Source: Opitutaceae bacterium (lineage in GTDB: Bacteria; Verrucomicrobiota; Verrucomicrobiia; Opitutales; Opitutaceae). Taken from it: a DNA stretch of 64,000 bases. This document shows, in pieces, positions 2-63,932 of the stretch. The position numbers and the translations under genes are program-made. The stretch is taken from positions 509-64,508 of the forward strand of contig JBAZMN010000001.1 in the NCBI GenBank assembly GCA_041649735.1. Reading direction: 5' to 3'. Each line of letters begins with the position of its first letter. The stretch's first letter is position 1. The notes under the pieces are model-generated. The model saw only the letters and a program-made list of their open reading frames with translations. It ran no database searches and was not told the origin of the DNA.

Positions 2-922
2 CCAGTCACAAGAGACAAGGAACCGTTGCCGCCACGATCCGAAAACAGCGTCAAGACGTATCTGAACCAGATAGCTGCCATCTTGGGCTGGGCGTGTCGT
101 GTGGGCCTGCTTGGTTCCGTTCCCCGCGTTCCCAAAATCAAGCGAACACGGGCCGCCGATTCGCCCATGAAGGGCCGTCCGCTAACGGAACCGGAGTTTC
201 AGACGATCTTGGCCAACGTGGAAGCCGTCGTAGGGCCTCTGGCTGCCCCGTCCTGGCGTTTCTGGCTCACGGGCCTCTGGTGGTCCGGTTTGCGTTTGGA
301 AGAGTCTCTCGCGTTATCCTGGGACGCGACGGGTGGCCTGAGCGTCGATCTATCGGGCAAATATCCGATGCTTCGTGTGAAACGGCACTGGGAGAAGGGA
401 CACAAAGACCGCATTTTGCCCATCGCCCCGGAGTTTGCAGAATTTCTGCTTGCCGTGCCGATCAACCAGCGGAGCGGGCTGGTGTTTCGGCTCCAAGCCA
501 TCGAGTGCCCCACGGCAAAGGGCGGCCGCTCGCGGGCGATGCCCGGAACCATTGATTCAGAATGGGCGGGCCGGATCGTATCGCGGATCGGCAAGGCGGC
601 TGGCGTGGTGGTTGACACGTCGGACGCGGGCAGGATAAAATATGCCACGGCTCACGATTTACGGCGTTCCTTCGGTTCCCGCTGGGCTTTGCGGGTCATG
701 CCGCCGGTACTCAAGGAGCTGATGAGGCACGACGATATCAAAACCACCATGAAATACTACGTCGGCTACAACGCGGATCGAACGGCGGAAGCGGCTTGGG
801 CGGCTATCCGTCCGCAGGGTGGCGAGGCTGCCAATGGTTCCGTTCGTGGTTCCGCTGGTTCCGAAAACACCAAAAAGGCGAGTCAACAAGAACACACAAC
901 CACAAGTGAAGAAAGCACTTAG
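2..922 (+). CDS. int: Tyrosine recombinase / phage integrase, 5-prime end off window
   Basis: C-terminal catalytic motifs are present: AHDLRRSFGSRW and MRHDDIKTTMKYY (R..HxxR..Y). The frame is open back to nt 2 and the track start at 26 is TTG. Confidence 0.9.
   Translation, partial: PVTRDKEPLPPRSENSVKTYLNQIAAILGWACRVGLLGSVPRVPKIKRTRAADSPMKGRPLTEPEFQTILANVEAVVGPLAAPSWRFWLTGLWWSGLRLEESLALSWDATGGLSVDLSGKYPMLRVKRHWEKGHKDRILPIAPEFAEFLLAVPINQRSGLVFRLQAIECPTAKGGRSRAMPGTIDSEWAGRIVSRIGKAAGVVVDTSDAGRIKYATAHDLRRSFGSRWALRVMPPVLKELMRHDDIKTTMKYYVGYNADRTAEAAWAAIRPQGGEAANGSVRGSAGSENTKKASQQEHTTTSEEST
836..863 (+). repeat. Three direct GGTTCCG repeats (836-842, 848-854, 857-863) in the integrase 3-prime end
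   Basis: Read directly from the sequence. The same heptamer recurs twice at 1087-1104, on the other side of the tRNA fragment. Possible arm-type recombinase sites. Confidence 0.45.
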
Positions 923-1461: not shown

Positions 1462-2259
1462 ATGCGAACCACGACTCTGACGGTTGCGATTGTGTTGGTG
1501 CTGCTCGCGTCGGCTGGACAGTTGCACGGCCAGAATACGAGCGACACGATAAAGTCGTATCTGGATTTCCGACGTAGCAATTTTCAGCATGACAGGCGAG
1601 TGGTGGAAGCCGGAGAGACCGGCGCGGAACTTCTGGGACGCGATGAACGCTGCGGGAAGAAAGAATTCGCGGGCACGCTGCGGGGGAAGATTCCCAAGGA
1701 CTACAAAATCGGCGACTGGGGATGTTACCATTCGTCGTTGCGGGTTATCAGCGCGGTAAGCAGTACATCCTGCATCGTCATGCCGACAAACCGAACGCAT
1801 GGTGGCCCGTTCCTGGTGCGTGGATTGGATATGTCCAAGATGGTGGACAATGTTGAATTCACGCTCCAACATCCATTCATAATTCTCGGCACCTATCGCT
1901 ATTCGTCGGCATCCGGTGCGTCGAGAACGATATTGGCGTTCGACTGCGGATCGAAGTTCAATGAATTCATCGCCGAGAAAACCAAGCGGGACCGCCAGTT
2001 GGCAGACGAAAAAGAGAAGGCTGACGCGGAAGAGCGGGCGAGACTCGACGAAGCACGCTGGCACACCTGGACCATTGCGAAAAGCGGAGAGAGGATAGAC
2101 GGTAAGTTTTCCAAGGTGGTAAGCGGTGTGGTGTACGTGACCACACGAAGCGGCGAAAAGACCACGCTGCAATTGGATGAATTGAGCGAAGGCGACCACG
2201 TGTGGATCAAGGATCGGTGTTGGAAGAAGCCGTCAGGAAATTCGTCCACAACAAAATAA
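1462..2259 (+). CDS. Secreted protein with C-terminal SLA1-homology (SHD1)-like domain
   Basis: Signal peptide MRTTTLTVAIVLVLLASAGQLHGQ after an AGGGGA SD. C-terminal segment WHTWTIAKSGERIDGKFSKVVSGVVYVTTRSGEKTTLQLDELSEGDHVWI matches the SHD1 pattern common in Planctomycetota. Confidence 0.7.
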   Translation: MRTTTLTVAIVLVLLASAGQLHGQNTSDTIKSYLDFRRSNFQHDRRVVEAGETGAELLGRDERCGKKEFAGTLRGKIPKDYKIGDWGCYHSSLRVISAVSSTSCIVMPTNRTHGGPFLVRGLDMSKMVDNVEFTLQHPFIILGTYRYSSASGASRTILAFDCGSKFNEFIAEKTKRDRQLADEKEKADAEERARLDEARWHTWTIAKSGERIDGKFSKVVSGVVYVTTRSGEKTTLQLDELSEGDHVWIKDRCWKKPSGNSSTTK

Positions 2260-52898: not shown

Positions 52899-52971
52899 AG
52901 CGCCGAGGTCGGAATCGAACCGCCTCCTTCCGCCTGGAAAAGCGGACGTGCAACCAGTACACTATCGGCGC
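52899..52971 (-). tRNA. tRNA-like gene, Gly(UCC)-like, with an 8-nt anticodon loop and a bulged T stem
   Basis: Parse: GCGCCGA-TA-GTGT-ACTGGTT-GCAC-G-TCCGC-TTTTCCAG-GCGGA-AGGA-GGCGG-TTCGATT-CCG(A)CC-TCGGCGC-T. It has a perfect 7-bp acceptor stem, a 5-bp anticodon stem and a TTCGATT T-loop. G1:C72, C2:G71, G3:C70 and U73 fit Gly identity. Confidence 0.55.
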
Positions 52972-61479: not shown

Positions 61480-61664
61480 TGCGCACTCGATAAAATCAGT
61501 TGTGCCTCTTCCAAGATCGCCCGCTGCTTATTCACGTTGCAGAGCAACTCGTTGATCAGCAGACTCAGGCGGCTTCCGCTTGCGTCGATCTCGGCCTGAC
61601 GGGCAATCGCAGCCTGAACGATAAGGGGCGGCATTGCGCCGCATTGGGCTTCTTGGATTGTCAT
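61476..61664 (-). CDS. Hypothetical early protein
   Basis: ATGA-coupled on both sides. Confidence 0.5.
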   Translation of the reverse strand: MTIQEAQCGAMPPLIVQAAIARQAEIDASGSRLSLLINELLCNVNKQRAILEEAQLILSSAQ

Positions 61665-61981
61665 GGTTCGTTTGCTCTTTTCTCGACGGCCCTGCCAAGC
61701 CTCGATAATTCATCCTGCTCGATAATCTCGACCGCCTTCCCGATGTCCTCCACCGCCTGAGCCACCGGGCTTTTCGCGCGATGCTCAGGGGCGAGCGAAG
61801 CGGCAGAAATCTCATTCGTCACCCGATGGATTGCGCAGTAGACTTCCTCGCGGTGCACTGGCACCTTGCTGTCGGCGTCGATGCCGATTCGTACCTTGTC
61901 GCCGCGAATCTCGACAATCACGATGGAAATATCATCGTTGATGCGGATACGTTCGTTCTTCTTGCGGGAGAGCACTAACAT
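61661..61981 (-). CDS. csrA: CsrA-family RNA-binding regulator with ~50-aa C-terminal extension
   Basis: MLVLSRKKNERIRINDDISIVIVEIRGDKVRIGIDADSKVPVHREEVY aligns by eye with canonical CsrA (MLILTRR.GE...IGD.V.V.VL...G..VRIG..AP..V.VHREEIY). Confidence 0.85.
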   Translation of the reverse strand: MLVLSRKKNERIRINDDISIVIVEIRGDKVRIGIDADSKVPVHREEVYCAIHRVTNEISAASLAPEHRAKSPVAQAVEDIGKAVEIIEQDELSRLGRAVEKRANEP

Positions 61982-62008: not shown

Positions 62009-62668
62009 TCATACCGCAACGAACTTTTCGTCTACGAGCGAGTACCAAGTGTCGGCCTTGATTCGCTTACCGTCGATTCTCTTTGTCCGAACGTCAACGC
62101 GACTCCACTTGTCTCCATCCAGCTTCCATTCCGCCAGCGTGAGCCAGCAGCCTACAGCGCCTTTTGCTTTTCCTCCGATTCCAAGCGCGGCGGCGCAGCC
62201 CTCGGCGCCTAACTCATTTCCGACAATCGTGGCGGTGCCGTAATCGCCGACGGCAGTAGCAACAGCGAAAACGCCGGTGGCCTGAGCGCCAGCCCGGTCG
62301 CCGGTGGCCTGAGCGCCAGCCTGGTCGCCGGTGGCGGACTCTTTTGTTTCGCTAAAGTCCACCTTGTCGAGAATGAACTTGATTCCAGCGGCGATAATGC
62401 CGCGCAGATCAATTTCAGCAGAAATCTTTAATTGCCTGCATACACGCTTGCTATCACTGTGGGTTTGATCCGACACACCGTCGGTCTCAACCTCTGCATA
62501 GCGCGAGTCGGCTGGCCGGTAGTAGGCAAAGACATCCAGCGGGTTTTCGCAGAAATGAAATCCGCTGGCGCACAGGATGACATTGCCGTCGTGCTCGTAT
62601 GTTCCTCCAACGGCGTATTGAAACTCATTGCATCGCAGATTATTGTCGAATCCCTTGTAGCCCTTCAT
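62009..62668 (-). CDS. Hypothetical protein: conserved N-terminal domain plus GD-x-AGAQATGD repeats
   Basis: MKGYKGFDNNLRCNEFQYAVGGTYEHDGNVILCASGFHFCENPLDVFAYY is a pattern I recall from many phage hypothetical proteins. Repeats TGDQAGAQATGDRAGAQATG follow. Confidence 0.6.
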   Translation of the reverse strand: MKGYKGFDNNLRCNEFQYAVGGTYEHDGNVILCASGFHFCENPLDVFAYYRPADSRYAEVETDGVSDQTHSDSKRVCRQLKISAEIDLRGIIAAGIKFILDKVDFSETKESATGDQAGAQATGDRAGAQATGVFAVATAVGDYGTATIVGNELGAEGCAAALGIGGKAKGAVGCWLTLAEWKLDGDKWSRVDVRTKRIDGKRIKADTWYSLVDEKFVAV

Positions 62669-62694
62669 GCGTCACCATCCCTTTCGACCGGGTT

Positions 62695-62753
62695 TAGAAA
62701 AAACCCGCCCGCTGCGTTCGTCCCGGTCGAATGGGGCGAATCGCAGGGGCGGG
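62695..62753 (-). terminator. Intrinsic terminator (about 18-bp interrupted GC stem plus U6)
   Basis: CCCGCCCGCTGCG...CGCAGGGGCGGG arms with an inner CGTCCC/GGGGCG stem. On the minus strand it is followed by TTTTTT (plus-strand A-run 62698-62703). Confidence 0.7.
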
Positions 62754-63249
62754 CGTAGATCGCAAAGCACCCCGCGCCCGATCGCACGACCGGGGAAACG
62801 CGGGGGATGCTACTGTTAAGAGTGAGGCGGGCCGGAATTGCACCGGCTGGCTTCCAGCTTGGGGCACCATCGCCCTCTTCCCAGGTAAGGTTCTCTGGTG
62901 TTGCAACGCATCAAAGCCACTGAGTTGCCGTTGTGCGTGTCGCTGTCCACGCCGCCGCCTCGATGTGCCGGGGCTACGTCGGCATCGCCCCGGCTGTTGC
63001 CCTTGCGGGCCGCTCGCGTTGTAGCGGGCTGCATCCCCGTGCTCGCAGCTTTGATTTGCGAACGGATCGGCCGACCAATCCGCCGTTAGTTCGGGTATCG
63101 CACGGATAGCCCCGAACGCCATGCCTTGGATCACGCACAGCCCTGATGGATTCGGTAGAAATGCCGGGACTCTCCCCGGCTGGTCACGTCTGTTGTCAAC
63201 GGTCGCCGTGATATCCCGACGCCATGAGTACGCCTCGGTTTGCGTAAGG

Positions 63250-63299
63250 CCCGCGTTGCCGAATCGAACGGCGAATACGGCATCCGGTGCCGACGCGGG
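63250..63299 (-). ncRNA. tRNA-like minihelix inside the non-coding region
   Basis: Minus-strand parse: CCCGCGT-C-GGCA-CCGGA-TGCC-GTATT-(C)GCCG-TTCGATT-CGGC(A)-ACGCGGG. It has a perfect 7-bp closing stem and a consensus T-loop hairpin. Confidence 0.3.
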
Positions 63300-63413
63300 G
63301 AAAAACAAAAAGCACGCCGGCCGTCGGTTGAGACTCGCCAGAGTGGCCGACGGGCGCGACGTGCGTTGGTTGGTGAATGAGCGGAACATGGCGAGTCTCT
63401 CCCCTAAAGGTTT

Positions 63414-63560
63414 CTATCCTCGACGCCGAACTTGAACTAACGCCATCGGCCAGTCATGCTGGCACAACTCTTTCACGCGGTCGGCCGCGTAGAAATCATT
63501 GGCCGTGAAGTAGATGTTCCACGGCTCAAACGAGTGTCTGCGAAAGACAACTTCCCACAT
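63414..63560 (-). CDS. Small early protein (48 aa)
   Basis: ATG at 63560 after an AGGAG SD. Sequence: MWEVVFRRHSFEPWNIYFTANDFYAADRVKELCQHDWPMALVQVRRRG. Confidence 0.5.
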   Translation of the reverse strand: MWEVVFRRHSFEPWNIYFTANDFYAADRVKELCQHDWPMALVQVRRRG

Positions 63561-63589
63561 TGGCGAGTCTCCTGAAAAAGTGGTTGAGG

Positions 63590-63847
63590 CTATTTCTTGC
63601 TGGCCTTCTCGGCCGCCGCTACCTGCGTTGGGAATCGAGTTACGCCGATCGGCTTCCGGCCTCGGCACATCGCCCGCGACTCCGCTTCCTTCCAGTCCTT
63701 GATTCGCTGGAGCTTGATGAGCCGGGTGATGCAGCGATAGCACGGCTCGCAAAGCCCCCTGGCGTACTCCACTCCCTTAGAGGGGCAGTCGGGGTTAATG
63801 CAGCGGGCCGGGCGACGGGTCGGTTTCTTGGTTGGCTTGCGTTTCAT
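63590..63847 (-). CDS. Basic zinc-ribbon early protein (first gene of the early operon)
   Basis: MKRKPTKKPTRRPARCINPDCPSKG..CEPCYRC. ATG at 63847 lies downstream of the promoter; the track start at 63940 lies upstream of the -35 element. Confidence 0.55.
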   Translation of the reverse strand: MKRKPTKKPTRRPARCINPDCPSKGVEYARGLCEPCYRCITRLIKLQRIKDWKEAESRAMCRGRKPIGVTRFPTQVAAAEKASKK

Positions 63848-63880: not shown

Positions 63881-63932
63881 ACATGTCATAACATCGGATT
63901 CTATCAAAGTAAACTTGTGTGTCAATACATGT
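63881..63932. promoter_or_regulatory. ACATGT palindromes flanking the early promoter (operator candidates)
   Basis: ACATGT at 63881-63886 (downstream of -10) and at 63927-63932 (abutting -35), plus a tandem ATGTAT. Confidence 0.4.
63898..63925 (-). promoter_or_regulatory. Early promoter TTGACA-N16-TAGAAT
   Basis: Minus strand reads gtaTTGACAcacaagtttactttgaTAGAATccg. Plus-strand tgtcaa at 63920-63925 and attcta at 63898-63903. Confidence 0.6.

Follow-up and report, generated by a model that had tools for sequence, protein, structure and literature searches.

The subject of this report is a stretch of about 0.7 kb (positions 62,695 to 63,413) on the minus strand of a 64,000-nt segment of an Opitutaceae bacterium contig, hereafter the window. 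An early promoter, an open reading frame (ORF) for an 85-residue Zn protein and the short orf48 lie upstream of it; genes for a DUF7666 protein and CsrA lie downstream, followed beyond csrA on the same strand by genes for an ATPase, a nuclease and RecT (Table 1). On balance, the stretch is probably a non-coding cassette of the tRNA-operon type that forms the 3′ part of an early transcript, is bracketed by two terminators, T1 and T2, and yields stable RNAs from two conserved modules, seg1 and seg2.

The early promoter, which is called as sigma-70-like from its consensus matches, is the sole one upstream of the cassette: no further promoter-like site with at least 8 of 12 matches occurs on the minus strand from 63898 down to 62668. 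Expression of the DUF7666, csrA and recombination genes therefore seems to need read-through of both T1 and T2. The stretch itself is a composite. Along the minus strand it runs from T1 through a tRNA-like element to seg1 and seg2, which are separately conserved, then to two non-conserved GC-rich hairpins and finally to T2, and it is from this order that it is read as a composite cassette. An earlier interpretation made from the letters alone, hereafter the sequence-only reading, had offered a choice between a large structured RNA and an antitermination or processing leader. The stretch is indeed best read as transcribed non-coding RNA, and a role in processing or in termination control is plausible; a single large structured RNA is not supported by such a series of parts.

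Table 1. Features of the cassette and its surroundings in the window, with those of the related contig L163 (last three lines, in L163 coordinates).
Feature	Position	Strand	Description
Early promoter	63898-63925	-	sigma-70-like; TTGACA, 16-nt spacer, TAGAAT and upstream TG; 11/12 matches
85-aa ORF (Zn protein)	63590-63847	-	basic, Cys-rich; downstream of early promoter
11-mer, copy 1	63561-63571	-	in orf48 ribosome-binding region
orf48	63414-63560	-	48-aa ORF between the 85-aa ORF and the non-coding stretch
11-mer, copy 2	63389-63399	-	with Shine-Dalgarno (SD)-like GGGGAGAG and ORF231 ATG; 11/11 complementary to 63330-63340
ORF231	62694-63389	-	231 codons; spans the stretch; judged spurious as a protein-coding gene
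T1, terminator-like hairpin	63301-63364	-	stem 63364→63312, ~16 bp, GC-rich, then U5GU5 63311→63301; arms CCGTCGG 63321-63327 and CCGACGG 63347-63353 (+ strand)
11-mer, inverted copy UGGCGAGUCUC	63340→63330	-	in T1 loop
tRNA-like mini-element	63250-63299	-	directly after T1 U-tract; folded 63299→63250
seg1	63167-63247	-	two invariant hairpins, single-stranded CAACAGACGUGACC, small hairpin CCGGG-GAGAGU-CCCGG 63179→63164
seg2	62997-63136	-	hairpin A 63117→63089 (arms GTTCGGG 63089-63095 and CCCGAAC 63111-63117, + strand, nested TATC/GATA), GUCGGCCGA hairpin, GCUGC/GCAGC hairpin, GNRA-capped hairpin
GC-rich hairpin	62966-62994	-	directly after seg2; -21.2 kcal/mol; arms CCGGGGC 62969-62975 and GCCCCGG 62987-62993 (+ strand)
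Strong hairpin	62768-62811	-	-25.7 kcal/mol; not conserved in L163; extends arms CCCCGCG 62771-62777 and CGCGGGG 62800-62806 (+ strand)
T2, strong intrinsic terminator	62698-62754	-	hairpin 62754→62704, -36.7 kcal/mol, then U6 62703→62698
DUF7666 ribosome-binding region	62660-62697	-	complementary to T2 apical part 62746→62712
DUF7666 gene	62009-62668	-	downstream of the stretch; ATG at 62668
csrA gene	61661-61981	-	downstream of DUF7666 gene
L163 tRNA-Trp-like gene	1619-1691		ARAGORN call
L163 tRNA-Met gene	1782-1853		58.8 bits
L163 csrA gene	2406-2765

The only long frame of the stretch, ORF231, is almost certainly not a gene, in agreement with the sequence-only reading, which had pointed to an Arg-rich, Lys-poor product and to a frame running through the terminator. 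The product does contain 33 Arg (14.3%) and 1 Lys in 231 amino acids, as against 6.3% Arg and 4.0% Lys in 30 neighbouring genes, from which at most one Lys would be expected with P = 0.0008. The frame crosses the hairpins of both T1 and T2 and the U6 tract of the latter before it stops at 62696-62694. GC at its codon positions 1, 2 and 3 is flat (0.64/0.62/0.64, and 0.61/0.58/0.68 in the N-terminal half) compared with about 0.60/0.44/0.70 in real genes. Similarly, when codon usage is scored by a log-likelihood trained on 28 genes of this genome, ORF231 receives -0.05, where real genes average 0.16 with a minimum of 0.03; the first half scores weakly positive (0.04-0.13, at the low end of real genes) and the part from 63000 to 62694 clearly negative. 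By the same measure, no other frame of the stretch on either strand scores as coding. Neither Pfam nor PHROG contains a match to ORF231, and a search of 5.8 billion clustered proteins recovered the identical sequence only, from two assemblies in which the DNA of the stretch matches the window at 100% identity. An exhaustive HMMER search of 1.84 billion representatives added one further match, P0003 (E = 5e-6). Among the contigs of identical sequence (L081, L082), an ENA contig of 65,360 nt stops inside the Zn-protein gene at 63773 and reaches 1587 nt past the left end of the window, and a Logan contig reaches 753 nt past its right end and bears a divergently transcribed 95-aa gene; the window must therefore derive from a third assembly, or else from a molecule that is larger or circular.

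P0003 led to the one relative that was found, the 3534-nt JGI contig Ga0599246_0041264 (L163). This 632-aa called "protein" (L163 329-2227) is a gene-calling artefact, as it takes in two tRNA genes and a terminator and overlaps a tyrosine-integrase gene that is read in a different frame. Two parts of the window align with the contig. For seg1 (63247→63167 against L163 1692-1771), the alignment covers 81 nt at 91% identity and includes one 1-nt indel (E = 3e-27); for seg2 (63136→62997 against 2029-2170), it covers 146 nt at 77% identity and has 10 gap positions (E = 3e-20). Outside these two modules nothing aligns at the nucleotide level. The interval between the two tRNA genes of L163 is exactly taken up by seg1, which, being bounded by them, cannot be coding there, and the indels of seg2 are not multiples of three. 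The reading frame of ORF231 is thus not conserved in its sole relative, where indels break it and a tRNA gene splits it. The long open frame on L163 (P = 0.0004) was discounted as evidence of translation for reasons of ascertainment, since the contig could be found only because a junk ORF on it had been called as a protein.

The arrangement of the relative looks like that of a small tRNA operon. The tRNA-Met gene and about 175 nt lie between seg1 and seg2, and seg2 is followed directly by a terminator (GACGGCG...CGCCGUC, then UUUAUUUUUU), after which come 190 nt and a small ORF before csrA. The CsrA proteins of the two loci are only 41% identical, and the similarity between window and L163, as judged from these alignments, is non-coding and much stronger than in the neighbouring protein gene. 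The small hairpin at the end of seg1 is present in a single copy in the window (63179-63164). In L163 it occurs twice, as CCGG-NAGAG-NCCGG followed by AUUU (1757-1786 and 1985-2012), on either side of the segment with tRNA-Met, which on sequence grounds looks like an insertion or duplication bounded by this hairpin.

Further relatives were sought in several collections. GenBank phage DNA, searched in near and distant modes, yielded no match to the window, and L163 was matched in its tRNA-Met portion only. Among 160 loci carrying DUF7666 in IMG/VR and metagenomes (best 58% identity), none resembled the stretch, orf48 or the Zn protein. A scan of IMG/VR with four exact DNA patterns from seg1 and seg2 gave no true match, L164 being a chance 17-mer, and a 19-mer scan of 185,579 GTDB genomes gave only two chance matches inside coding genes. 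For orf48, only the protein itself was recovered from the protein database and none from IMG/VR; the AAA protein likewise had no relatives in IMG/VR, where a 176-aa protein of L163 found one irrelevant locus.

Comparison of the two members also offers suggestive structural support for seg1 and seg2 as RNA. Hairpin A of seg2, GUUCGGG-GC-UAUC-CGUGC-GAUA-CCCGAAC in the window, becomes GUCCGAG...CUCGGAC in L163, with two double substitutions that keep the pairing. Its GCUGC/GCAGC stem, whose loop CACGGGGA is conserved, becomes GCUGC/GCGGU and is kept through G-U pairs, and the terminal hairpin is capped by a GNRA loop in both loci (window GCAA, L163 GAAA). Of the 34 consensus pairs of seg2, four differ in both bases between the loci, six gain or lose a G-U through a change of one base, and all stay paired. 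The hairpins of seg1 are invariant, except that visual inspection shows the innermost pair of the main hairpin, which lies outside the RNAalifold prediction, to change from G-C to A-U. Moreover, consensus energies are better on the forward strand than on the reverse complement (-34.3 versus -29.9, and -33.3 versus -28.2). No Rfam family beyond tRNA significantly matches the region, the whole window or L163, and the GOLLD and ROOL models stay without a match when E up to 10 and permissive filters are allowed.

Directly behind T1, at the place relative to seg1 where L163 has its tRNA-Trp-like gene, the window carries a tRNA-like mini-element. It is composed of a 7-bp acceptor-type stem (CCCGCGU/ACGCGGG), a hairpin (CGGCA-CCGGA-UGCCG) and a T-arm (GCCG-UUCGAUU-CGGC), and MAFFT aligns this T-arm with that of the L163 gene. 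A D-arm is absent, and the middle hairpin has a 5-nt loop on a 5-bp stem instead of a 7-nt anticodon loop. The fold is well defined, with the minimum free energy structure at a frequency of 0.58. The form of an acceptor/T-arm mimic, namely a 7-bp acceptor stem continuing the T-arm with a UUCRANY loop, is found here and nowhere else on either strand of the 64-kb window. Elsewhere in the window, a borderline tRNA gene at 52900-52971 on the minus strand scores 30.8 bits with Rfam against a threshold of 29; ARAGORN reports it as "tRNA-???" (anticodon "tc") and cannot assign the anticodon.

At the upstream end of the cassette, the sequence-only reading had remarked as an oddity that ORF231 reuses the leader of the preceding gene. 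The sharing is real, as GAGACTCGCCA stands upstream of both orf48 and ORF231, and it goes further than had been remarked, since T1, a terminator-like hairpin that had gone unrecognised, carries a third copy in its loop, in inverted orientation. The shared 11-mer, GAGACUCGCCA, has exactly these three copies in the window, and allowing one mismatch adds none. T1 begins only about 25 nt past the ORF231 start codon and reaches -30.9 kcal/mol with its tail, the stem CCGTCGG/CCGACGG forming its upper part; like T2, it has the GC-rich hairpin and U-tract of an intrinsic terminator. The duplex of its loop with the orf48 region is predicted at -30.1 kcal/mol, compared with -11.8 +/- 2.7 for shuffles, and that with the copy-2 region at -23.8 kcal/mol, compared with about -12 +/- 2.7; in both cases 0 of 2000 shuffles reach the value. 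In a truncated nascent transcript, before the 3′ arm of T1 exists, the helix between copy 2 and the loop would have -26.4 kcal/mol. Only 1-2 nt separate this helix from the 3′ arm, so that it should be unable to coexist with the T1 stem. Among the alternative folds, the one with T1 is the more stable (-46.0 versus -39.3 kcal/mol for the one with the antiterminator). On these models, copy 2 is proposed to serve as the strand of an antiterminator, to open a short leader ORF, or both, and the first codons of ORF231 may be translated as such a leader.

At the other end, T2 is the strong intrinsic terminator that the sequence-only reading had placed ahead of the promoter-less delayed genes. Its apical part resembles the T1 loop in being complementary to an adjacent ribosome-binding region, here that of the DUF7666 gene. 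The pairing has a 13/14 core and -33.0 kcal/mol, compared with -18.3 +/- 3.5 for shuffles (P = 0.0005), and this region is the best partner of the T2 apex among 32 such regions tested. The two complementarities suggest, as modelled, that the terminator hairpins could double as translational switches; if functional, they would be a compact means of coupling the transition from early to delayed early expression to translation. Between seg2 and T2, the hairpin at 62966-62994 is not conserved in sequence, and the L163 terminator occupies the equivalent position. Two weak Rfam matches were set aside: anti-hemB at T2 (E = 0.04-0.14), which reflects a terminator-like shape only, and VqmR, which reflects terminator shape or chance.

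As a whole, the stretch folds with z = -3.27 relative to 20 shuffles. Only the 3′ end is exceptional, with z = -3.71 for the 240-nt window 62940-62701 and z = -4.68 for the last 141 nt; the remaining 240-nt windows mostly inside the stretch range from +0.48 to -1.84, and the background of 119 windows of the same genome has a mean of -0.25, a standard deviation of 1.07 and a minimum of -3.11. The four 7-bp GC stems on which the sequence-only reading had based its description of the region as hairpin-dense are all present (Table 1). By these z-scores, the density mostly comes from GC content and the two terminators. The stretch is therefore distinctive by conservation rather than by thermodynamics.

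From this layout we infer transcription, attenuation, processing and stable RNA products in the following order. Transcription would start at the early promoter, with the stretch as the 3′ part of the transcript. Pairing of copy 2 with the T1 loop would form first and, being sterically incompatible with the T1 stem, would act as an antiterminator as long as copy 2 is free of ribosomes and RNA-binding proteins; either the Zn protein or orf48 could be a candidate antitermination factor. Polymerases that pass T1 would transcribe the cassette, and host tRNA-processing enzymes would cut at the tRNA-like element, RNase P at its 5′ side and RNase Z or E at its 3′ side. Cutting would free stable RNAs with seg1 and seg2, as with the function-unknown RNAs of phage tRNA operons, and T2 would halt most transcription before it reaches the promoter-less genes from DUF7666 through csrA to recombination.

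Several observations weigh against a tRNA-operon-type cassette that releases structured RNAs. ARAGORN finds no tRNA at the mini-element, and the Rfam tRNA model (RF00005) has no match in 62650-63450 at E up to 10. The first tRNA of L163 is also weak by Rfam, which gives it 25 bits and then only as tRNA-Sec. At 19 nt, the loop of T1 is unusually large, and the simple terminator scanner used called neither T1 nor T2 because their loops exceed 8 nt. By themselves, seg1 and seg2 fold no better than shuffles (z = -1.2 and -0.7), and their hairpin density was for that reason dropped as evidence in itself. Column shuffling gives z = -1.8 and -2.1; the observed values, which include the four compensatory pairs of seg2, are attained in 33 of 500 shuffles, and the structure was derived from the same two sequences. 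As there are just two independent members, covariation cannot reach significance, and novelty and mechanism alike rest on this thin comparative base. Finally, ORF231 has a good SD sequence and an ATG, and an open frame of 231 codons has P = 0.03 by chance.

The strongest rival is a cis-acting regulatory leader for the csrA operon, in which seg1 and seg2 would act on the polymerase, like HK022 put or the Bacillus EAR element, or bind a phage factor, with read-through of the downstream terminator and expression of the operon as the result. It is unlikely, although three observations speak in its favour. The order of seg1, seg2, GC hairpin or terminator, (gene) and csrA is the same in both loci, the want of a detected promoter ahead of the DUF7666 and csrA genes would call for such read-through, and the terminator loops are complementary to neighbouring ribosome-binding regions. 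Against it stands mainly L163, where a tRNA gene and some 175 nt separate seg1 from seg2, where the unit resembles a self-contained tRNA operon with its own terminator, and where 190 nt and a small ORF intervene between that terminator and csrA; nor does any Rfam family of such elements match.

Somewhat less likely again is a decaying remnant of a phage tRNA array, with the mini-element as a pseudogene, seg1 and seg2 as leftover spacers and only the terminators functional. The window does lack the intact tRNAs that stand at the corresponding places in L163, the mini-element has lost its D-arm and normal anticodon loop, and no homologues were found in IMG/VR, GenBank phages or the 19-mer GTDB scan. 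Decay would hardly have left the supposed spacers (91% and 77% at the nucleotide level) far better kept than the csrA product (41% at the amino-acid level) and the unalignable surroundings, however, and the substitutions in their stems are compensatory or compatible with G-U pairing.

It is very improbable that the stretch works at the level of DNA, with the 11-mers and palindromes as operators of a phage DNA-binding protein or as part of an attachment or recombination site. Such a role would account for the three exact copies of the 11-mer in 242 bp, of which two are direct and one is inverted, for the 13/14 inverted repeat that flanks T2, and for the integrase gene of L163, which ends 350 nt upstream of seg1. 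One-sided changes compatible with G-U and the better fold of the forward strand are strand-specific, as for RNA; there are no iterons and no AT-rich core, and the window's own integrase homologue lies at the other end and runs in the opposite direction. This tyrosine-integrase homologue (26-922, plus strand) is cut by the window start and is 32% identical over 97 aa to the integrase of L163, which has the same orientation as seg1. It is just as improbable that ORF231 encodes a genuine orphan protein with an unusual composition (basic, Arg-rich, disordered), since the SD-like sequence 8 nt before its ATG, the leader held in common with orf48, the length of the frame and the weakly positive N-terminal codon score are set against flat codon-position GC even in that half, a single Lys, protein homologues that were not found, homologous DNA in L163 that is bounded by tRNA genes and broken by indels, and a frame that crosses two terminator hairpins.

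The genes downstream of the cassette have features of their own. In the DUF7666 gene, a 27-nt unit at about 62277-62336 is present in tandem duplicate (ATGDQAGAQ and ATGDRAGAQ in the protein). The window CsrA has a C-terminal extension with the motif A-x-A-V-x-D-I-G, which it has in common with the CsrA of L163. In a profile search it groups with a clade of long CsrAs, and NCBI attributes it to an Opitutaceae metagenome-assembled genome. The long-CsrA loci that were sampled (L167, L168, L173 and L178) are chromosomal, in ribosomal-protein, CysS and acetyltransferase contexts, and are without seg1 and seg2. These sequence relationships suggest that a phage captured a host-type csrA.

Among known regulatory systems, the T1 region invites comparison with terminator attenuators. 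As in these, a strand that lies upstream, here copy 2, can base-pair with a portion of the terminator hairpin while the 3′ arm has yet to be transcribed; this strand also contains a start codon and an SD sequence. The T1 region differs in that the antiterminator pairs with the loop of the terminator and not with an arm, and in that this loop has a further match in a distant ribosome-binding region, that of orf48. Processive antitermination RNAs such as HK022 put and EAR are structured RNAs upstream of a terminator that precedes promoter-less genes. The cassette would occupy just such a position, but no sequence or structure match to them was found, and in its relative the modules are split by a tRNA gene. 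The linkage of the cassette to csrA in both loci, together with loops that contain GGA (e.g., CACGGGGAU in seg2), recalls the CsrB/RsmZ RNAs. GGA is not enriched in the cassette, however, and a sponge of this type is ruled out by 10 GGA in 717 nt, where 12.9 are expected, and by 0 AGGA.

The closest likenesses are with RNAs from phage tRNA regions. The tRNA gene cluster of phage T4 gives rise to RNAC and RNAD, two RNAs that are not tRNAs and whose role is unknown (PMC3014915). Seg1 of L163 similarly fills a tRNA-sized slot between tRNA genes, and seg2 stands there before the operon terminator. The likeness is one of context, with none of sequence expected, and the window differs in having a truncated tRNA-like element instead of tRNA genes and in placing the cassette between two terminators in the 3′ part of an early mRNA. 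Phages and prophages also encode GOLLD and ROOL, in many cases close to tRNA islands, and the GOLLD linker sometimes bears tRNAs (PMC12286853). The tRNA-Met gene of L163 likewise sits between the two conserved modules, in a total of about 0.55 kb. By contrast, neither of their Rfam models matches here, and only about 227 nt are conserved.

It is conceivable, if still doubtful, that seg1 and seg2 are the core of an undescribed class of phage structured RNAs that is linked to csrA, occurs in a tRNA-operon context and, like GOLLD, tolerates a tRNA in its linker, and that in the window has come to lie within a two-terminator switch, each loop of which is complementary to a neighbouring ribosome-binding region. 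Such a switch, if true, would couple termination, translation and possibly CsrA binding. The host lineage in which these modules are found is poorly sampled. The entry for ORF231 in public protein collections, P0001 (231 aa), is probably, like P0003 (632 aa), an artefact over RNA genes, and the two would show that non-coding phage RNAs can hide in protein databases. Finally, phage tRNA regions have repeatedly been found to hold RNAs of unknown function, as T4 RNAC and RNAD, GOLLD and ROOL exemplify, and the csrA-linked pair of modules described here would be an added candidate.

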